DNA of 64,000 nt, from the NCBI GenBank assembly GCA_964346815.1, contig CAYFWF010000043.1, forward strand, positions 2,850-66,849, written 5' to 3'. The DNA is from an uncultured Eubacteriales bacterium (GTDB lineage Bacteria > Acidobacteriota > Aminicenantia > Aminicenantales > Aminicenantaceae). The translations under genes were made by a program, and so were the position numbers. Positions 1,892 to 45,622 of the stretch are shown piece after piece (position 1 is the stretch's first letter; every line of letters begins with the position of its first letter). The notes under the pieces are model-generated. The model was not told the origin of the DNA. It ran no database searches and worked only from the letters and a program-made list of their open reading frames with translations.

Positions 1892-4800
1892 TTATTTTTT
1901 TGATTTTGGTTCTTGAGGGGCGGTTCGTGTCAGTTCGATCGCTAGTTTGGAGGAAACCGTTTTGTTTTTTCCGGCCTTTTTTGCGTCATAAAGAGCCTTA
2001 TCAGCCAGGTTGGTCAGTTCAGTAGCCGCTTTTTCGTAGTCTGGAGGAAAGATTGTTTTTTTGGGCCGTTTTTTCGCTTTTCCATCTAAATAATAACAGT
2101 GAGCGATGCCCAAGCTTACGGTTTTATTGATGGCCTTTCCTCTTGGGGAAAAGCTAATTTTCTGGAAAGCTTCTCTTATTCTTTCCGCTACGACGTTTGC
2201 ATTCTTTGAATCACCTCCTGGAAGAACAATAATGAACTCATCGCCGCCAAACCGGGCCGCCCAATCATTGATGGCATAATCCTCACTCCCGAATTTTGTT
2301 TTCCATCCATCTTCTTTATACGTCCTGATATTCTGATGGATGACTCGGGCGATCTCCTTGATGACTTTGTCCCCTTCCAAGTGATGGTATGTGTCATTAT
2401 AGGGCTTAAAGTCGTCGATATCCACCATTATGAGAGCCAGAGAACTCCGGAAGGTCTCGGTAGCCTTGATGATTAGGGGGAGTTTTTCATTGAAATATCT
2501 CCTATTATAGAGCCCGGATAGCTCATCGGTTACCGAAAGACGCTTCACTTCTTCTTGGAGCTTCTTCCGTTCTGTTATGTCTTCGACAACGGAATCGAAA
2601 TGAACGATTTTTCCTAACTCGTCCCTTACAGCGGTGGCCGTGACCGAAACCCAGAAAGTCCTCCCGTCTTCTTTTTTCATCAAGATATCTCTGTTCTGTA
2701 CAAAACCATTTTCTTCGATCTCTTTCATAAAAAAGCCGCTGTCATTCGGATTCTGATACAGATCTGCTATTTTGAGATCCAGGAATTTTTTCGCATCTTT
2801 TAAGCCGAACATGTCTACTACGGCAGGATTGGCTTCAAGAATCTTCCCTTCTGGGGTAGCACGGAGAACACCGATCTGAATATTGGTGATGAGTTCGCGA
2901 TATTTCTTCTCCGATTCCTTGATTTTTTTTGAAAGTATGCGTTTTTGGATAATTTCTGAAATCAAGTTGGCAAAGATCTCCAATGGTCTGACTGATTCTT
3001 CTGTAGGAAGTGATCCACTTTTTGAATCATCCACCGAGATCATCCCGATGACCTCACCTTTTGTATCCCTCATTGAAACGAGAAGATTGTCGTCTCTATT
3101 CCAGGAGTTTTCGTCTTCGGGATAAGTTCTTTCACTGGTTATCAAAGCGTTTCGATCCAAGATGTCTTTTTGATGATGGGGAATGAAACAGGATTGGTTT
3201 CCGAGCTTTATTCCTTTTTCGAAATAACTGAGATATTTGCGCTTAGGCATCTCAACGTTTTTGACTTTTTCAACAACTTCCTTCTTGACTCCCTTATGAG
3301 CGATGATCTCTCGATAGGGAAATTCGTCGATGAAGTAGGAAATAAGGACTCGACTGAAGTCAGAGATGTCAACCACAGCCTGAGCTATATACTCGAAGAG
3401 TTCTTTCTCATCCTCTATGGCGAGTATGGCGGCCGAGATTTTTGTGAATCTTTCGAGCTGCCGGCTCATTTTTTTCATCTTTTCTTCGGCGCTTTTTCGA
3501 TCAGTGATGTCCATATCCATAGCAACTGCGATGGGTTCTTGGCCGGCAATTATGATTGGAAAAATAGAGGCAAGGATATATTTTTCTTTTCCAGAATTTC
3601 TGTTATATGTCCATTCCAGAAGAGGCGAGGGCGTATTCGTCCGGATGACTTTTTCGAGAAGCTCTTTGAATTTTGCCTCCTCAGCCTCAGATATCAGGAT
3701 ACCTTTCAGGCTTTTTCCCTTAACTTGAGACTCGGATAATCCCAGAAGCTCCTCTGAATATTGATTCCAGAAGATGACTTCGCCGTTATTGTTAAAACCC
3801 TGTATGGCAATATTTGGTGCAAGGTCAATGATCGCTTTGAATTGTGCTCTCGAGTTTTCCACATCCTGACAAATCTGGTTGAGTTCCTCAAGAGCCTTTT
3901 TTTTCTCAGTGATGTCGGATGAGATCGCAAGGATCCCGTAGGGCTCTTTGCCCTCCATCATTTTGCAGGAAGAGATTTTAATGTGGCGAATTTTCCCATT
4001 CTTATCGAGAAGAGTGAGTTCTTGCTGTCGGTTATTGCCTTCGAGTAAGCTTGAGAAAATTTTCTCAAAACCTGGGGCGTACTCTGGTTGAACTATGGCA
4101 GAAAGATCTTTTCCGATGATATCTTCAGGCATATAGCCAAGTTGGTGCCGGATCGATGGACTGATAAAAGTAATTTTTCCTCCTGGATCCATCATGATTA
4201 TAATTTCGGTTATGTTGTCGATAAGAGTTTGGTATTTATCTTCTGTTCTTCGGAGGACCTTCTCGAGTTTTTTAATCTCCGAGATATCTTTGATAATCTC
4301 CATTTCAGCCGGACGGCCTTCGTACTGGATAATTGAAGAATGAATCTCCACATCCTTTGTAGATCCATCTTTACGTTGAATTTGAGTTTGAAAAGTCGAA
4401 GGAACATTTTCTTCTACCATCCGAATCTTTTGGCGCTGAGCCAGAGTTTCTTTATCTTTTGAAGGAAGCCAATCGAAAAAGCGTTTTCCTTTGTATTCTT
4501 CGTAGTCATATCCAAGTATTTCTGATGTGGAATCGTTGGCATATTTACAGATTCCGTCTTGAATGATAACAATCCCATCTTGCGCCTGCGCTGAGAGATC
4601 AGTGAACTTCTTTTCAGTGGCCTTCAGGGCAGCTTCGATCTTTTTCCTTTCCGTAATGTCTCGGGCGACTCCTCTTATGGCGCTTATTCTACCTTTTTTG
4701 TCTTTGACAGTTCTGAGATGGATTTCGAGAGGAATCCTGTTCCCGTTAGAAGAAATTACTTCGGCTTCGAAATAAGGATTCTTGAGTCCTTGGGGAGCTT

Positions 4801-6699: not shown

Positions 6700-9336
6700 T
6701 TACCTGTTGGGATAGAGACTGTACCACCATTCTGGCTGGTTCTTTAACCAACGGTCGAACCACGCTATGATTGTTTTTGTCCAGATTTTCCTCTTATTGA
6801 AATTCAAGATGTGATGATTTTGTTCATGTATTTGGATGTACTCCACTTCTCTTCCCAATATCTTCAGAGCTGTAAAAAGTTGGGTGCTCTCACCAGGTGG
6901 AACATTAGTGTCTTCAGAGCCATGAAGCAGCAGCAGAGGAGTTGTGATTTTGTCAGCACTAAAAAGAGCACTCTGGTTGATATAAATATCTTTACGATTC
7001 CAGGGATAGCTGTTGGCAGCAGCATAGGCGGAATACGAATATCCCCAGTATCCTTCACCCCAGTAGCTGGCAATGGAACTGATCCCAGCATGAGCCACTG
7101 CTGCGGAAAACATACTGGTTCGGGTTTGGATGAGCATGGTGATGAATCCTCCGTATGATGCGCCGATACACCCGACTTTTTTTGGATCGATAAAGGGATG
7201 TGCAGCTAGAAACTCCTTGACACCGTAGATGATGTCATCGGCCACGATGAAGCCCCAGTCGTTGACATGATGAGCTGAAAATCGCTGTCCGTAGCCTATA
7301 GCCCCGCTCGGCTGAAGAACATAGACCACATAGCCCTGCGCAGCCCAGAGATTTTTCGGATATCGTCCTCCGAATTCGCGGGTGACGGGAGTGGTGCCGC
7401 CGTAGTAATAGACAATACAGGGATATTTCTTGTTTGGATCGAAATCAGGAGGATAATAAATACGTCCCTCAATGAGGCGTCCTTGCTGGTTGTTAAAGGT
7501 CCAGCGTTGAACGTCGCCAAATTCCACATCGCCAAATTCCTCTTCCGCTGGGTCGCAGATCAGTCGAGATTTCGCGTTTTTAAGGTTGAGAAAATAGGCC
7601 TTAGGCGGTCGAGCAGCTCCTGATCCTATGAGTACTGCCAGAGCCTTGTCTTTGGCAAAATCGACGTGATCGATGACTTCTACTCCCGCAACAGAAATAT
7701 TGAGATACTCCTTCTTTTCCAGATCGAATCTGAAGAGACGGCGGTATGAATGATTAATCGTGAGAAAATATATGGCATTTTCTTTTTGGCTCCAGTAGGC
7801 CTGAGCTATCGCTGGACTGAAATCTTTCGATATCGGCTCTACCTGTTTCGTTTCAGGATCGAACAGATAGGCCTGGATATCGAACTCATTGGGAATCACA
7901 TTGGCTGGAACATTCTTGCCGACATCACCAAATGCCGAAGGCCCTCCGAGAATCAGAATTTTTGTCCCGTCTGGGCTCCACTGGGCTTGGCCCATCCACT
8001 TCCCTTCCCAGAGCAGTCTGTGTTTAAGGGTTATGAGATCGAGTGAATAGAGTTCGGTTTTTTCAAAAGGTCTCTCCGAATAGTCGATCAGTGTGCGGGT
8101 GAACAAAAGCTTTTTTCCGTCCTGACTTATGCTGTTGAGAGTTGTGGAGAAGTTACCCGCGGTCAATCTTTCTTTTGCTCCTTCAGGCACAGTTATTTTA
8201 TACAGGTAAGATTTGTTCCTCCACCAGGGCTGTCGATCGGAAAGATTCTGAAAGCGTTTGACTCCCTGAAGATTCGAGCTGCCTTTTTGGGCAATTGAAT
8301 AGATGATGAAATGACCGTCGGGAGACCACGTATGCGTGCCCATATTTGCCACATTTTCAAGGATTGGGACAGATGTGCCTTTTTCCAAATCGACAACCCA
8401 GAGGGTTGAACCTGATTTGTTCTGGGTTGTGTAAGAGAACTTTTTACCCGATGGGGCCCATTTAACTCTGGAGATAGAGGTTGCGCCTCGATAGGTATGG
8501 ATAAGGCGGTTTTCCGAGAGGTCATACAATTCCACCCAACTTTCGGCGTCATCACTAGGAGGAAGGGCCCTACGTAAGGATACAGCAGCCAAAGTTCCAT
8601 CTGGGGATACGGATATCCTTGAAAGTTCAGGTGTTTCGAGCAAGTGATAAATGGTCATGTGTCGACCGGGAGAAAGGGTGAGAAGGGGAGGAGGAGAAGC
8701 ATATTTTTCATCGAAGGAGAGCGTCCCTTTCATGGACCATTCCTCATTCCAATCAGGAACATATACGGACTTCACGAGAAGCAAATGTTTTCCTGTTTCT
8801 ATGCTCAAGTCTGAATGAATTTTTCCCCCACTCGGAGATTTATTCTTATCTTCTGAGTCATCAGCATTGATTTTGGTTCCAATGAGATCGCCATCAACAA
8901 AGAGGCGAAAAGGTTGTGTGCTGTGGAGGGTCACCCGTGCCCTTGTCCATCTTTTTACATCTATATAGACTCCAAAATAGGCAATATTGGGATATGAACC
9001 GCCTTCCAAGAGTATAACACCTTCTTCGTCGGACTGGATTTTTCTCCATTGATTTAGAGTTCCGTCGTGCCATTTTACAGTTTTTTTAGCTTTAGGCCTG
9101 AGTTCAGCTGGTTCGATCTGCTCGAATGCTACCAACTCTTTGATTGTGGATTCAGTTTTAATTTCTTCAACTGAAGCTGGAAGAGGATTGGAAAACGGTC
9201 CCAAAAACATCCATTCGGATATGGTCAGTTCCGTGGTTCTCTCCTGTTCCTCCTCAGGATCAGCCTGGCTGAGAAGGAAAAGCGGCATCACGAGAAGGAC
9301 AAAAATAGGAATCCATTGCCTAATTTTTTTGTTCAT
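6700..9336 (-). CDS. secreted S9 family serine peptidase (prolyl oligopeptidase/acylaminoacyl-peptidase type) with N-terminal beta-propeller
   Basis: 878 aa. Signal peptide, long WD40/TolB-like propeller region, and a C-terminal alpha/beta hydrolase with GASYGG nucleophile elbow. Confidence 0.85.
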   Translation of the reverse strand: MNKKIRQWIPIFVLLVMPLFLLSQADPEEEQERTTELTISEWMFLGPFSNPLPASVEEIKTESTIKELVAFEQIEPAELRPKAKKTVKWHDGTLNQWRKIQSDEEGVILLEGGSYPNIAYFGVYIDVKRWTRARVTLHSTQPFRLFVDGDLIGTKINADDSEDKNKSPSGGKIHSDLSIETGKHLLLVKSVYVPDWNEEWSMKGTLSFDEKYASPPPLLTLSPGRHMTIYHLLETPELSRISVSPDGTLAAVSLRRALPPSDDAESWVELYDLSENRLIHTYRGATSISRVKWAPSGKKFSYTTQNKSGSTLWVVDLEKGTSVPILENVANMGTHTWSPDGHFIIYSIAQKGSSNLQGVKRFQNLSDRQPWWRNKSYLYKITVPEGAKERLTAGNFSTTLNSISQDGKKLLFTRTLIDYSERPFEKTELYSLDLITLKHRLLWEGKWMGQAQWSPDGTKILILGGPSAFGDVGKNVPANVIPNEFDIQAYLFDPETKQVEPISKDFSPAIAQAYWSQKENAIYFLTINHSYRRLFRFDLEKKEYLNISVAGVEVIDHVDFAKDKALAVLIGSGAARPPKAYFLNLKNAKSRLICDPAEEEFGDVEFGDVQRWTFNNQQGRLIEGRIYYPPDFDPNKKYPCIVYYYGGTTPVTREFGGRYPKNLWAAQGYVVYVLQPSGAIGYGQRFSAHHVNDWGFIVADDIIYGVKEFLAAHPFIDPKKVGCIGASYGGFITMLIQTRTSMFSAAVAHAGISSIASYWGEGYWGYSYSAYAAANSYPWNRKDIYINQSALFSADKITTPLLLLHGSEDTNVPPGESTQLFTALKILGREVEYIQIHEQNHHILNFNKRKIWTKTIIAWFDRWLKNQPEWWYSLYPNR

Positions 9337-36574: not shown

Positions 36575-36694
36575 ATGGCCGAAGAGAGAAAGACCTATGT
36601 CTGCAATCTGTGTGGTCAAGAAGTGGTTGTGACTAAGGCAGGAGTCGGAACATTGGTTTGCTGTGATCAACCTATGGAAATCAAAGAAGAGTAG
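36575..36694 (+). CDS. desulforedoxin
   Basis: 39-aa ORF absent from the >=60-aa track: MAEERKTYVCNLCGQEVVVTKAGVGTLVCCDQPMEIKEE. It matches the Dx pattern YxCxLCGQxVxV...GxGTLVCC...M. AAGGAGGA RBS 7 nt upstream. Confidence 0.8.
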   Translation: MAEERKTYVCNLCGQEVVVTKAGVGTLVCCDQPMEIKEE

Positions 36695-36722: not shown

Positions 36723-37169
36723 ATGAAAAGTTATGATGACATCATCGAGTTCGCTATCCAGAGGGAAGAAGCAGCCATAAAAGCTTATGGAGACTTGAGC
36801 AAGTCAGCAAAGACTCCAGGCTTGAAGGACATGCTTCTCGAGCTTCAAAATGAGGAGAAAAATCATAAAAAGCTTCTCCAGGACATCACGGAGGAGCAGA
36901 TCGCGTCCTTTCCAAAAGAAGAGGTGATTGATTTAAAAATATCTGATTATTTGACCGAAGAGCCGCCGGGCGAGGATATGAACTTTCAGGATCTTCTCAT
37001 TTTTGCTGCGAAAAAAGAACAGAACGCTGTGGACCTCTATACCAAACTAAGAGAAGATGCCGAGAGCAACGAGCTGAAGGAACTTTTTGATTTTTTAATC
37101 ATACAGGAAAAATCTCATAAATTGAAGCTGGAGAAAGAATACGAAAAACATGTTTTGGAGGAGGATTGA
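36723..37169 (+). CDS. rubrerythrin-like (ferritin-like diiron) protein without rubredoxin domain
   Basis: Start at MKSYDDIIEF. Two E..E..H-type helix pairs (ELQNEEKNHKKL and FLIIQEKSHKLKLE). Confidence 0.6.
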   Translation: MKSYDDIIEFAIQREEAAIKAYGDLSKSAKTPGLKDMLLELQNEEKNHKKLLQDITEEQIASFPKEEVIDLKISDYLTEEPPGEDMNFQDLLIFAAKKEQNAVDLYTKLREDAESNELKELFDFLIIQEKSHKLKLEKEYEKHVLEED

Positions 37170-37264: not shown

Positions 37265-37426
37265 ATGGAAAAATGGGAATGTACAGCCTGCGGATATATT
37301 TATGATCCCGAACAGGGCGATCCCGAAAATGGAATCGAACCTGGAACTCCGTTCGAGAAGTTGCCTGATGATTGGGTTTGTCCCCAGTGCGGAGTGGGTA
37401 AAGAGTATTTTCAAAAAATGTCCTGA
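37265..37426 (+). CDS. rubredoxin
   Basis: 53-aa ORF absent from the track: [53 protein letters not shown]. Classic CxxCG...CPxCG motif. Confidence 0.9.
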
Positions 37427-37450: not shown

Positions 37451-38653
37451 ATGCATGTCATTGTGGTTGGTAACGGCCTAGCAGGAACGATTTCGTCGAA
37501 GACTATCCGTGAGCTGGATTCCGAGGCAGAAATCGACGTTTATGCTGCAGAACCGTACCCATACTATCCTCGTCCTAATCTTATTGAATTCTTAGCTGGT
37601 CTTATTTCCAAAGAAAAGCTTTTTGCTTTCTCGGAAGAGTGGTACAAGAATCAGAATATTAGTCTTCACCTCAGTACTCCGGTAATATCACTCTATCCGG
37701 AAGCCGGGCAGGTCGAACTGGAGGACGCAAGAAAAGTCGGATATGATGCCCTGCTTCTGACCAATGGCGCTCATTCCTTTATTCCTCCTTTCGAAGGGAC
37801 AAAAAAACGAGGGGTTTTTGCGCTGAGAACGCTGGATGATGCGCTCGCTATCTTGGATTGGATCAAAAATCATAACAAGGTGGCGATCATCGGGGGCGGA
37901 CTTTTGGGGCTGGAGATCGCCAAAGCCCTGCGGTCTGGGGGGGCTGAGATCCAGGTAGTAGAATTTTTTGAGCGTCTCCTGCCACGGCAGCTCGATACTC
38001 AGGGCGCCTCAGTGCTGAAAGCCCAGGTCGAGAATATGGGAATCAGTATCCGTCTCGGTGTGGCCACCGAAGAAATCTTGGGGGAGGATGAGGTCACAGG
38101 GCTCCGCTTCAAAGATGGAGATGAAATTGAGGCAGGAGCTGCTGTAGTGGCTGCGGGTGTGAGACCGAATATCGGCTTGGCCAAAGAGGCGGGACTTGTG
38201 ACAGATAAAGGAATCGTCGTTGATGATCATCTCCAGACAAGCCACCCGGATATATTCGCTGCTGGAGATAATGTTCAGCACAGGGAAAAACTTTACGGAA
38301 TCATTCCCGCTTCTTTCAACCAGGCCCGGACTGCCGCCTTCAACATTGCCGGACAGAAAAAGAAGTATGAAGGGACAATTCCTTCCAATACCCTCAAGGT
38401 CATTGGCCTCGATGTAACTTCCATCGGAGAAGTCAATCCTGAAGAAGGAACCTGCGAGGAGTTTCGGGAGGTAAGGGAAGAAAAAGGAATCTATAAAAAG
38501 GTCGTTATCAAGGACGGAAAGATAATTGGTGCCATATGGATAGGGACCAAAGACAAGGTTAATGATATCAATCGTCTCATCCTCCAACAGATTGAAGTCG
38601 AAAAATGGAAGAGCTCGCTTTTAGAGGATGATTTCGATTTCTCAATCTTATGA
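37451..38653 (+). CDS. FAD-dependent NAD(P)H:rubredoxin oxidoreductase-like pyridine nucleotide-disulfide oxidoreductase
   Basis: 400 aa. N-terminal VVVGNGLAG FAD motif, a second GGGLLG NAD motif, and the operon context with rubredoxin. Confidence 0.7.
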   Translation: MHVIVVGNGLAGTISSKTIRELDSEAEIDVYAAEPYPYYPRPNLIEFLAGLISKEKLFAFSEEWYKNQNISLHLSTPVISLYPEAGQVELEDARKVGYDALLLTNGAHSFIPPFEGTKKRGVFALRTLDDALAILDWIKNHNKVAIIGGGLLGLEIAKALRSGGAEIQVVEFFERLLPRQLDTQGASVLKAQVENMGISIRLGVATEEILGEDEVTGLRFKDGDEIEAGAAVVAAGVRPNIGLAKEAGLVTDKGIVVDDHLQTSHPDIFAAGDNVQHREKLYGIIPASFNQARTAAFNIAGQKKKYEGTIPSNTLKVIGLDVTSIGEVNPEEGTCEEFREVREEKGIYKKVVIKDGKIIGAIWIGTKDKVNDINRLILQQIEVEKWKSSLLEDDFDFSIL

Positions 38654-39657
38654 AGCTAAAAATTTCGACACTCTTCTTTTTCCTCATGATTTTGGTCACC
38701 CGTGCTTTTGGAGATATCACTGGATACCTTTCATCCAGTTTTTTGAAGAGCCAGGAAAAGGGAGAATATAACAGAGGAACGTTCACGAATCCGTTATTCG
38801 GGCTGAGTTTTTCGGGAGACGTCTCGCCCGATATAAATTATGAGGCCGAATTCAGGATTGTGGATGTCACACAGCTTGAAATCGATCAAGCATGGATTGG
38901 AGTGGGCCGTGCACAATCGTTTCAGCTCAAACTGGGTCTCTATCTGGTGCCTTTTGGAAGATACAACCGAATCAACAGGCCTCACCAAACATTCCTGATC
39001 CAATCCCCTCTCCACGTCGAATTTTGTTATCCCCATCGGTGGAGGGATATCGGTATCCTCGTCGAGGGAAGTTTCAGCGGCATTTTCTACTCAGGGTATC
39101 TCGGAAATGGGCTCAGAGAAGGTCAGGATTTGAGGGACGGTCAGCAATTCGAGGATAATAACAAGAATAAAGGAAAAGGGGGGAGGTTTGGATTATCGCT
39201 CGGACAGGGAGTCGAGGTGGCTTACTCCATCCACAGCAGTAAGTATGATGACCAGGACAGTCGGAATCTCGTCCTTCATGGAGTGGATTTGACCTGGATA
39301 ACTCAGGATTGGCAGGTATTCGGCGAATACACTCTTGGCAAAATTGACAATCCAGAGGGTTTTGTCCAGGGGGAGGCCGAAGGCTATTTTGTTTCGGTTT
39401 CGATCAATTTCGGGAACTTCATTCCTTTAGCGAGCTATCAGAAACTGAAGTATTCTGATCCCTACCATGGACCCGGTTTCCTGGAGGAGATGGAAACAGG
39501 AGAGGGGATTTCCATTGATAGGAGCCGGTGGGCTTTGGGTTTGATGTATATTCCCGTTCAAAATGTTTTTTTTAAGTTAGAATATGATTTCAACCGGGAA
39601 GAGGGGGAAGCACCAAAGGATGATCTTTGGGCCATACAAGTGGCGGTCAGTTTCTGA
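38650..39657 (+). CDS. putative outer-membrane beta-barrel protein
   Basis: 335 aa. Signal peptide, alternating amphipathic pattern and a C-terminal aromatic residue (…VAVSF). Confidence 0.45.
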   Translation: MKLKISTLFFFLMILVTRAFGDITGYLSSSFLKSQEKGEYNRGTFTNPLFGLSFSGDVSPDINYEAEFRIVDVTQLEIDQAWIGVGRAQSFQLKLGLYLVPFGRYNRINRPHQTFLIQSPLHVEFCYPHRWRDIGILVEGSFSGIFYSGYLGNGLREGQDLRDGQQFEDNNKNKGKGGRFGLSLGQGVEVAYSIHSSKYDDQDSRNLVLHGVDLTWITQDWQVFGEYTLGKIDNPEGFVQGEAEGYFVSVSINFGNFIPLASYQKLKYSDPYHGPGFLEEMETGEGISIDRSRWALGLMYIPVQNVFFKLEYDFNREEGEAPKDDLWAIQVAVSF

Positions 39658-42221: not shown

Positions 42222-42377
42222 CGATCCTAGGAATGTCTTTCATCTACAGGAAGAAAAGGAAGAAAAGGCGTGGATTCATCTCTCCCCGAAAAGGGGAGGC
42301 AGGAAGCTTGGACATATTTTGGTCGGCCGTGAACGCAAGCTTTGCCGGCAGGTATGCGAAGCGGTTCCCTCCTCATG

Positions 42378-42406
42378 TTGACTTGAGATTCTATTGGTGA
42401 TAAAAA
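42378..42406 (+). promoter_or_regulatory. putative sigma70 promoter TTGACT-N17-TAAAAA(T) for the Lys-rich Dx-like gene
   Basis: Hexamers read directly about 40 nt upstream of a GGAGGTGA RBS and the ATG at 42447. Confidence 0.35.
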
Positions 42407-42446
42407 TATCAGGGAATGAAAGTCCGTCTTGAATGGGAGGTGACGA

Positions 42447-42755
42447 ATGCCGGTAAAAAAAACGACAAAAAAAGAGGTGAAAAAAACGGCCAAAAAAACT
42501 GCGAAGAAAGCCACTAAAACTGAGGCCAGGCCAAAAAAGGGCAAAAAGATCAAAAAAGGACAAACCTATGAATGCGGCCTCTGTGGATTTCGCTTCATGG
42601 TCGATGATTGTGGAGGAGTAGAGGAACACTATTTCATCTGCTGCTCTGAACCGATGAAACAGAAAAGAGCCAAAAAGGGATCCAAAAAAACAGAGAAAAA
42701 AACTGCAAAAAAGGCACCCAAGAGGACGGCAAAAAAAACCACAAAGAAGAAATAG
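42447..42755 (+). CDS. Lys-rich small protein with desulforedoxin-like Cys4 core and histone-H1-like KKTAKK tails
   Basis: 102 aa. Core TYECGLCGFRFMVDDCGGVEEHYFICCSEPM parallels the Dx pattern CxLCG...CC..M. The flanks are about 35 aa each of K/A/T repeats. It has its own RBS and promoter. Confidence 0.6.
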   Translation: MPVKKTTKKEVKKTAKKTAKKATKTEARPKKGKKIKKGQTYECGLCGFRFMVDDCGGVEEHYFICCSEPMKQKRAKKGSKKTEKKTAKKAPKRTAKKTTKKK

Positions 42756-43025: not shown

Positions 43026-44771
43026 ATGAGAACCGATATTTCCGTTATGATCGCAGGTAAGGCAGGTGATGGTGTGCTGTTTACGGGGAATGTTCTCGCA
43101 AAGATATTGAAAAAACAGGGATGGGAGATTGTAACCTACAGAAATTTCCCTTCCAACATAAGAGGCGAGGCCACGAACTACACCATAAGGGCGAGCCAGA
43201 AAAAAATTCATGGGAGCGCAGATGAAATTGATGTGCTGATGGCTTTTGATTGTGATTCCATCTTAGAGCACATTGAGACTCTTGCTGAAGGGGGAGTGGT
43301 ATTGTGCGAAGGAAAAGAATTGTACCGGCTTAAGCCTGCACAAAGAGCGGGGAGAACATTCCACACTTTTCCGATGAGGGATTTGGCCCGAGAGAAATTG
43401 GGGCATGAGATTTTCAAAAATATGATTCTTTTAGGAGGATTATGCTACATCCTCGATCTTGATTTTCAGATCCTCACAGAGACCATCTCCGATACCTTCC
43501 TTGAAAAGAAGGGAAAGGATGTTGTAAGGAAGAATGTTCAGGCTATTCACCTCGGCTGCGAAGAGGCAAAAAAGATTGTGTTGGAGAAAGAAAGACACAG
43601 GCTGAAGAGCAAGAAGGATTTGAAAAGATTGCTTATTTCTGGTGACGAGGCCATTGCTTTCGGGGCGCTGGTTGCTGGATGCCGTTTTTTTGCTGCTTAT
43701 CCTATCTGTCCAGCCACTGAGATCTGGCAGTGGTTAACACTCCATTTCCCTCGCTATAAAGGTCTTGTCGTTCAGACAGAAGATGAGTTAGCAGCCATAA
43801 ACATGGCTTTGGGAGCTTCCTATGCGGGAATGAGGGCGATGACATCTACTTCCGGTCCCGGAGCTTCCTTAATGATGGAAGGGTTTAGCCTTGCTGGCAT
43901 GGCCGAAATCCCGATTGTCGTCGTTCATGTCCAGAGAGTTGGTCCGAGCACCGGATTGCCGACTAAGTCTGAACAAGCAGAGCTGACCCAGTGGATTCAC
44001 GGCGCTCATGGGGATTTCCCCCGAATTATCCTTTCTCCCGGGACGGTTAGAGAATGTTACGAATTTACTATCAGGGCATTCCACCTTGCCGATAAATACC
44101 AGTGTCCGGTGGTCCTTCTCACCGAGCAGGATTATGGGCAAAATTACAGGACGGTAAAAAGTTTTGGTTTTTCGGAGATTCCTATAGACAGGGGTAAAAT
44201 GCTGAGCCAGAAAGAGCTTCTCGGTATAGAGGATTATCGCCGCTACAAGTTCGTCCGTGACGGCATCTCCCCAAGAGTCCTCCCATCGATGAGAAATGGG
44301 ATTCATATGGTTGAGAGCAACGAGCATGATGAAAGAGGCTATCGAGATGAATCCACCCAAAACAGAAAGAGGATGATGGAGAAAAGGATGAAGAAGCTCA
44401 TATCAGCACGGAAGGATCTCATCCATTCCAGAGTTAGGGGAAACAAAACGGCTGATATCGGTCTAATAGGCTGCGGCTCAACACTAGGCCCTATCCGAGA
44501 AGCCATGGATCAACTTCTCGATGCTGGGATAGAGGCCAAATTCATGCAGATCCGTACTCTCTGGCCCTTTTTCAGAACAGAAGTTGAAAATTTCATCGAC
44601 AGTTGTGAGCGGATTTTTGTGGTGGATAATAATTTTGAGGCACAGTTAGCCCATCTCATACAGAGTCAAGTGAAGAATAAGAATGAAATAGAGAATATAT
44701 TGAAATACTCAGGAGAGACATTCCGTCCGCGCGATATTTCAGATTTTATCAAAGAGGCTTTGAAGCGATGA
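43026..44771 (+). CDS. korA: 2-oxoacid:ferredoxin oxidoreductase alpha subunit (fused gamma+alpha domains, two-subunit OFOR type)
   Basis: The N-terminal gamma-like domain (GKAGDGVLFTGNVLA) is fused to the alpha domain. The ATG at 43026 is preferred over the TTG at 43011. ATGA coupling to the beta subunit. Confidence 0.85.
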   Translation: MRTDISVMIAGKAGDGVLFTGNVLAKILKKQGWEIVTYRNFPSNIRGEATNYTIRASQKKIHGSADEIDVLMAFDCDSILEHIETLAEGGVVLCEGKELYRLKPAQRAGRTFHTFPMRDLAREKLGHEIFKNMILLGGLCYILDLDFQILTETISDTFLEKKGKDVVRKNVQAIHLGCEEAKKIVLEKERHRLKSKKDLKRLLISGDEAIAFGALVAGCRFFAAYPICPATEIWQWLTLHFPRYKGLVVQTEDELAAINMALGASYAGMRAMTSTSGPGASLMMEGFSLAGMAEIPIVVVHVQRVGPSTGLPTKSEQAELTQWIHGAHGDFPRIILSPGTVRECYEFTIRAFHLADKYQCPVVLLTEQDYGQNYRTVKSFGFSEIPIDRGKMLSQKELLGIEDYRRYKFVRDGISPRVLPSMRNGIHMVESNEHDERGYRDESTQNRKRMMEKRMKKLISARKDLIHSRVRGNKTADIGLIGCGSTLGPIREAMDQLLDAGIEAKFMQIRTLWPFFRTEVENFIDSCERIFVVDNNFEAQLAHLIQSQVKNKNEIENILKYSGETFRPRDISDFIKEALKR

Positions 44772-45622
44772 AGGCAAAGGATTATCATCTTCATGATCCC
44801 ACATGGTGTCTTGGATGTGGTATCTACGGGTTGTTTTCCAGCCTCAAAGCGGCCGCTGCCTCACTGCAATTGAAGCCAGAAGAGACCGTGATTGTCACTG
44901 GGATTGGCTGTCATGGGAGATTGAACAACTATTTCAAGGCCTACGGCTTTCACAGTCTGCATGGGAGGGCATTGCCGGTGGCTACAGGGGTGAAACTCGC
45001 CAATGTCCAGCTTTCTGTGATCACAGTGAGTGGAGATGGAGATGCCTATTCCATTGGCCTCAACCATTTTATTCACGCGGTGAGAAGAAATGCGGATTTA
45101 ACCTACATAGTTATCAACAATATGATTTATGCCCTCACTCAGGGTCAAACATCGCCTACGAGTCCATTGGGCTTCGTCTCCGGTTCCACACCACAGGGTT
45201 CAAAAGAAGTTCCTCTTGATGGACCGCGGATGGCCTTTGTATCGGGAGGGACTTTTATTGCCAGAGGATTTTCTGGCTCCCCTAAGCAGCTCAGCGGTCT
45301 TATCGAACAGGGGATCCGGCATAAAGGATTTTCTCTTATCGACGTTCTGAGTCCCTGCGTAACCCACAACAAGGTCAACACGTACGATTGGTACAAAAAA
45401 AACACCTATGATATCAGCCAAAGACAAGGATATGATTCAGGAAACAGGGACTCGGCCTGGGAAGTTCTCAAAGATGAGGAAAGGATGGCTTTGGGGCTTC
45501 TCTTTAAAGACGCGAGGGCTTCTTATGAGGAGCTTGTGCTTCCCGATAAGAGACCTTTGTTTCAGAGCCGAATGACCATCGACCGGAAGGAATGGGAAAG
45601 AATTTTGGAAAAATTTGAATGA
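44768..45622 (+). CDS. korB: 2-oxoacid:ferredoxin oxidoreductase beta subunit (TPP-binding)
   Basis: WCLGCG...GIGCHGR and TPP-binding GDGD motifs. 284 aa. Confidence 0.85.
   Translation: MKAKDYHLHDPTWCLGCGIYGLFSSLKAAAASLQLKPEETVIVTGIGCHGRLNNYFKAYGFHSLHGRALPVATGVKLANVQLSVITVSGDGDAYSIGLNHFIHAVRRNADLTYIVINNMIYALTQGQTSPTSPLGFVSGSTPQGSKEVPLDGPRMAFVSGGTFIARGFSGSPKQLSGLIEQGIRHKGFSLIDVLSPCVTHNKVNTYDWYKKNTYDISQRQGYDSGNRDSAWEVLKDEERMALGLLFKDARASYEELVLPDKRPLFQSRMTIDRKEWERILEKFE

Follow-up and report, generated by a model that had tools for sequence, protein, structure and literature searches.

Desulforedoxin (Dx) is one of the smallest metalloprotein folds; the Dx of D. gigas (PDB 1DXG/1CFW) is an obligate 2 x 36-aa homodimer, and together with the N-terminal domain of desulfoferrodoxin / 2Fe-SOR it defines a superfamily (PF06397, TIGR00319) with the canonical cysteine motif CXXCX15CC (PMC3116461). 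Histone-H1-like proteins of bacteria, among them chlamydial Hc1/Hc2 (PF07382), Pseudomonas AlgP, and the C-tail of mycobacterial HupB/MDP1, carry Lys/Ala/Thr/Pro-rich tails with repeats such as KKTAKK and AKKA. In Streptomyces DdbA, an H1-like polycationic region is joined to a second, folded, DksA-like domain that targets RNA polymerase (PMC3643593); the HTH-Dx-SOR class of superoxide reductases was the only described architecture found here that links a Dx domain to a DNA-binding module, in this case a folded helix-turn-helix in a protein that also carries the catalytic SOR domain (PMC3116461).

A gene combining a Dx-type core with H1-like tails was examined in a stretch of 64,000 nucleotides from an uncultured Eubacteriales bacterium (GenBank assembly GCA_964346815.1, contig CAYFWF010000043.1; the whole stretch is termed the window). 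The initial annotation had described a 102-aa protein in which a desulforedoxin-like Cys4 knuckle is flanked by histone-H1-like tails, preceded by its own promoter and ribosome binding site; the observation is confirmed, except that the start coordinate given there, 42378, is the first base of the -35 hexamer and not of the ORF. The features of the locus, and of the comparator used below, are as follows.

42378..42383 (+), -35 hexamer TTGACT
42398..42406 (+), extended -10, TGaTAAAAA, with TG at 42398-42399 and the hexamer at 42401-42406, 17 nt after the -35; promoter function is inferred
42436..42440 (+), Shine-Dalgarno GGAGG, 6 nt before the ATG
42447..42755 (+), coding sequence with ATG start, 102 aa plus stop
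42447..42557 (+), N-terminal Lys-rich tail (residues 1-37, net +16), modelled at low confidence
42558..42656 (+), acidic core (residues 38-70) with predicted desulforedoxin fold; ligand codons C43 42573-42575, C46 42582-42584, C65 42639-42641 and C66 42642-42644; insert residues C55 42609-42611 and H61 42627-42629; M70 42654-42656
42657..42752 (+), C-terminal Lys-rich tail (residues 71-102, net +17)
36575..36694 (+), canonical 39-aa desulforedoxin, a comparator and paralogous domain that is not part of the same unit

The protein contains 33 Lys in 102 residues (net charge +28, pI 10.2); the N-terminal tail has 17 K + 1 R and the C-terminal tail 16 K + 2 R, whereas the core is net -5, and the tail DNA contains 12/24-nt tandem repeats. 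The locus is a real gene. The identical protein is called on an NCBI MAG contig (GCA_012974985.1, JABAOH010002764.1) and on a Logan contig, and three orthologs of 84-90 aa (P0001-P0003; P and L numbers denote the proteins and loci compared here) sit in the same purA-alr-X neighborhood, where X is the gene described here. Among the four orthologs, dN/dS is 0.05-0.08 over an ungapped 55-codon block, with dS of 0.86-1.37, and all tail indels are in frame. The promoter-like hexamers are not significant by themselves, since 2 sites were found in 1 kb against 1.4 +/- 1.3 in shuffled sequence; however, in an alignment of the four orthologous upstream spacers, TTGACT, the 17-nt spacing, TGnTAAAA (within the invariant block TATTnnTGnTAAAA) and GGAGGT are invariant while the rest has diverged, especially in locus L003. 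No convincing intrinsic terminator was found downstream (the only hairpin has a long loop and no U-run, z -1.39), and the window has no Rfam or tRNA features. Two long antisense ORFs (42227..42553 and 42276..42629, minus strand; 108 and 117 aa) overlap the gene; they are Phe-rich, look like mirror images of the A-rich Lys codons, and could mislead gene callers.

The comparator at 36575..36694 is a genuine desulforedoxin (TIGR00319, E 2.3e-12, 46.4 bits against a cut-off of 36.05), and BLASTP of the two window proteins gives 13/34 identities (E 7e-6 for that single comparison) with all four ligand Cys aligned. It opens an oxygen-defence cluster that lies about 3-6 kb upstream of the gene on the same strand and marks the host as an anaerobe or microaerophile; by coordinates transferred from locus L001, desulforedoxin is followed by a rubrerythrin-family protein (36723-37169), rubredoxin (37265-37426), a Pyr_redox_2/Rubredoxin_C oxidoreductase of NADH:rubredoxin oxidoreductase type (37451-38653), and a Porin_4-like gene (38686-39657).

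On its own, the 102-aa protein gives only sub-threshold hits: PF06397 at 15.7-16.8 bits against a cut-off of 23, TIGR00320 at E 0.013, and no hit to TIGR00319 or to HC2 models. A word-indexed search recovered only 3 close relatives, but an exhaustive HMMER search of 1.84 billion representatives with the four-sequence core profile returned 124 hits at E<=1e-3. Five of these are long proteins that each matched as 5-34 short repeated stretches confined to the knuckle half of the profile, like C2H2 arrays, and were set aside as false positives; the remaining 119 are proteins of 37-133 aa, of which 118, together with the window protein, made up the 119-sequence alignments. In these, C43, C46, G47, C65 and C66 are invariant and M70 is at least 90% conserved, which is the Dx signature C-x-x-C-G...C-C-x-x-x-M. 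Of the 119 members, 51 hit PF06397 at E<0.01 (best 1.9e-7). The five best PDB hits of the family profile are D. gigas desulforedoxin (E 8.6e-7, residues 2-35 of 36) and four desulfoferrodoxin sequence groups (about 6e-5), and hhalign against a small Dx / desulfoferrodoxin N-domain alignment gives 98.1% probability, E 1.2e-13. Nothing else in PDB matches the profile beyond the first knuckle: rubredoxins (PF00301), which have two CxxC knuckles where the second ligand pair is here an adjacent CC, match only this part, at E 0.01 or worse, and C2H2 zinc-finger hits are likewise confined to it (Y-x-C-x-x-C-G-x-x-F). AF2 on the 119-sequence core alignment models the core as the Dx knuckle (pLDDT 86.9). 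The structural interpretation of the initial annotation is therefore supported, with the corrections that the protein is not a plain Cys4 Dx, and that it is one member of a large family rather than an isolated oddity.

Two departures from canonical Dx set this family apart. First, the spacing between the cysteine pairs is 18 residues in the window protein and 18-19 in 109 of 120 members, and HMMER and hhalign place a 3-4 residue insert relative to Dx. Second, the insert carries conserved ligand-type residues: of 258 distinct members, 199 (77%) carry C-x-C-x3-(H or C)-x3-CC, with His in 104 and Cys in 95 at the position of H61. An interchange of this kind at one column is typical of a metal ligand, and most members probably have a second metal or cluster site; where the third position is Cys, for example in a Dehalococcoidia MAG (L014, 415-744), the ~30-residue core contains seven Cys (CGCVDVCEITCC), which may indicate a binuclear site or an Fe-S cluster rather than a mononuclear center. 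As a caveat, 25 of 258 members scored as lacking the whole triad, although a few of these are indel misregistrations, and the triad therefore cannot be essential to the core role of the family. The window subtype (C55, G57, H61) is rare, with 5 of 258 members; its lineage has lost one Cys of the insert (C-G-G instead of C-G-C), which the sister orthologs P0002 and P0003 retain, so that the putative second site may be impaired or dispensable here. Since most members also fall below the curated cut-offs, the family is best regarded as a new subfamily or variant within the Dx / desulfoferrodoxin N-domain group and not as desulforedoxin proper; it has no SOR domain.

The basic tails are a family trait. 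Of 258 members, 251 have a combined tail charge of at least +6 and 224 have basic tails on both sides; the median core charge is -5 and the median pI is 9.5. Pooled tail composition in the first 120-member set is K 28%, A 22%, T 9% and P 6%. Six of 119 members hit Pfam HC2 (PF07382) and four hit NCBIfam histone_lik_HC2 (NF038052), but these hits may reflect amino-acid composition only, and the similarity to H1-like proteins is compositional and not shown to be homology. In a full-length AF2 model of the window protein, built from only 4 sequences and of low overall confidence (pLDDT 48.8), most tail residues have pLDDT below 50. Tail length drifts quickly, with total lengths of 84-102 aa among close orthologs; Aminicenantes MAGs (L007, 5698-6165, also L008-L010) encode a long form of about 150 aa with a ~110-residue PAKK/TAAK-rich N tail and a poly-Lys C tail (KKKKKSKKKKGKKKK). 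This pattern fits a constraint on composition and charge rather than a fixed structural contact. A few members (P0055, P0093, P0109) have no basic tails, though some may be fragments; another, P0076 (122 aa), carries a C-terminal DUF2795 domain instead (PF11387, E 2.6e-16), a domain swap that could hint at what the tails do if the function of DUF2795 were known, which the titles and abstracts of the two papers found to mention this domain do not address.

The family comprises at least 118 clusters at 50% identity; a profile search of a 5.8-billion-protein collection gave 368 clusters at 90% identity, out of only 449 word-index candidates. The named clusters are almost all annotated as "hypothetical protein" (two JGI entries say "rubrerythrin"), all but one have no precomputed Pfam domain, and no dedicated Pfam or NCBIfam model and no paper describing the family were found. 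The organism labels seen are Candidatus Aminicenantes/Aminicenantales, Deltaproteobacteria, Chloroflexota/Dehalococcoidia, Nitrospirae and "Eubacteriales" MAGs; no isolate was found, although only GTDB representatives were scanned, with narrow patterns, and a scan of viral contigs found no relatives. Among the loci inspected, a match in Nocardia (L015) proved to be a spurious pattern match, and L016 and L017 are true desulfoferrodoxins rather than family members.

No operon partner is conserved, as expected for a stand-alone housekeeping protein. The window and L024 share the order purA-alr-X-korA-korB-nifU-nifS, whereas in L003 and L025 a sigma-54 activator is inserted after X; in the P0003 lineage (L003-L006, about 8656-9177, orthologous to window korA/korB, 43026-45622), the two 2-oxoacid:ferredoxin oxidoreductase genes are collapsed by an apparent internal deletion into one 173-aa ORF that joins the first ~80 residues of KorA to the last ~95 of KorB. 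The nearest syntenic relative is an Aminicenantales MAG (L023) with the order purA-hemerythrin/PAS-X-PhzF-korAB-NifU; its purA is 63% identical to that of the window, and most of the linkage to korAB, NifU and NifS is inherited synteny within one lineage that is absent elsewhere. Independent loci place the gene after rpsD-rpoA-rplQ on the same strand (Aminicenantes L007; L010 shares the downstream genes but is cut at the contig start), between M16 peptidases and rsmI (Deltaproteobacteria L011, L018), beside rubrerythrin and RidA (Nitrospirae L012), after a secretin (L013), beside FeThRed_B, glutaredoxin, Rieske and korAB genes (L020), beside ferritin/rubrerythrin, HSP20 and a 50-aa Dx gene (L021), and among unrelated genes (L022). 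In L021, the family member (4001-4195) sits 250 bp upstream of the separate Desulfoferrod_N gene (4441-4593), whose sequence after the CC pair (CCVTKRW...) lacks the usual x-x-P-M. Redox and oxygen-defence genes recur as neighbors, which fits anaerobic hosts, but the linkage is loose and does not name a partner.

The best-supported interpretation, held with moderate confidence, is that the gene encodes a small, probably abundant, metal-folded and probably dimeric protein that binds a polyanion; this function is inferred from sequence and predicted structure, without experimental or expression data. C43, C46, C65 and C66 would hold one metal ion, Fe as in Dx or Zn, in a distorted tetrahedral site, without which the core would not fold. 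By analogy with D. gigas Dx, the core most likely dimerises, and one particle would then project four Lys/Ala/Thr-rich tails with about +66 charge in total, which would bind a polyanion without sequence specificity, as H1, Hc1/Hc2, AlgP or the HupB tail do. DNA is the leading candidate because of the H1/Hc2-like composition and the rapid drift in tail length, although no direct evidence distinguishes it from RNA, the ribosome or polyphosphate. The insert probably forms a second metal or cluster site; oxidation or metal loss at either site would unfold or split the particle and so change binding. The suggestion in the initial annotation of a redox- or metal-responsive nucleoid or ribosome-associated protein remains plausible, although the present analyses do not test it. 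A more far-reaching and doubtful possibility is that the family represents a previously unrecognised, widespread class of metal-dependent chromatin proteins of anaerobic bacteria, in which a Dx-type Fe(Cys)4 knuckle, in most members beside a second Cys2-His/Cys site or cluster, would dimerise four H1-like tails; oxygen, oxidants or iron limitation would then directly dissolve or reshape nucleoid compaction, in the manner of a redox-gated bacterial linker histone.

Among the alternatives, it is possible, though unlikely, that the protein is a soluble Dx-type one-electron carrier or oxidative-stress component, with cationic tails that only steer it to an anionic partner, the membrane surface or a polyphosphate granule; AlgP, an H1-like protein, localises to polyP granules (PMC9239181). 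The homology of the core to redox-active Dx, the redox or oxygen-defence genes in several neighborhoods (korAB in the window, L023 and L020, and the genes noted above in L020, L021 and L012), and a few members that consist of the core alone are consistent with this view; yet no redox partner is conserved across lineages, the kor linkage shared by the window, L024 and L023 is inherited synteny, a charge of +33 per monomer is far more than electrostatic steering needs, and canonical Dx, including the one in this window, has no tails. An accessory ribosomal protein or RNA chaperone is similarly unlikely; many small basic metal-knuckle proteins are ribosomal (bL31, bL32, bL33, bL36, bS14, bS18), and the placement after rplQ in L007 supports this reading, but elsewhere the neighbors are unrelated, no ribosomal-protein family is hit, the adjacent-CC site is the Dx signature and not a zinc ribbon, and the tails change quickly in length and sequence, in a way that would not be expected of ribosomal-protein extensions threading through rRNA. 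A spurious ORF in A-rich low-complexity DNA, or a degenerating duplicate of the nearby desulforedoxin gene, might be suspected from the poly-A-rich tandem repeats of the tail DNA, the sub-threshold Pfam score and the chance-level promoter hexamers, but is effectively excluded by the dN/dS values, the in-frame indels, the conserved promoter and RBS, the confident core model, and hundreds of homologs across phyla with invariant Cys.

These results add to the Dx fold a large, phylogenetically broad and unannotated branch with two new features, an inserted, conserved Cys/His triad and polycationic H1-like tails on both sides. Even if the target is RNA or polyphosphate, the family provides a compact, testable and easily synthesised module of about 60-100 aa, and a reason to add a dedicated family model to the databases, because current cut-offs miss most members. 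If the tails bind DNA, these would be metal- and possibly redox-dependent nucleoid proteins in little-studied, mostly uncultured lineages such as Aminicenantes, Chloroflexota, Deltaproteobacteria and Nitrospirae.
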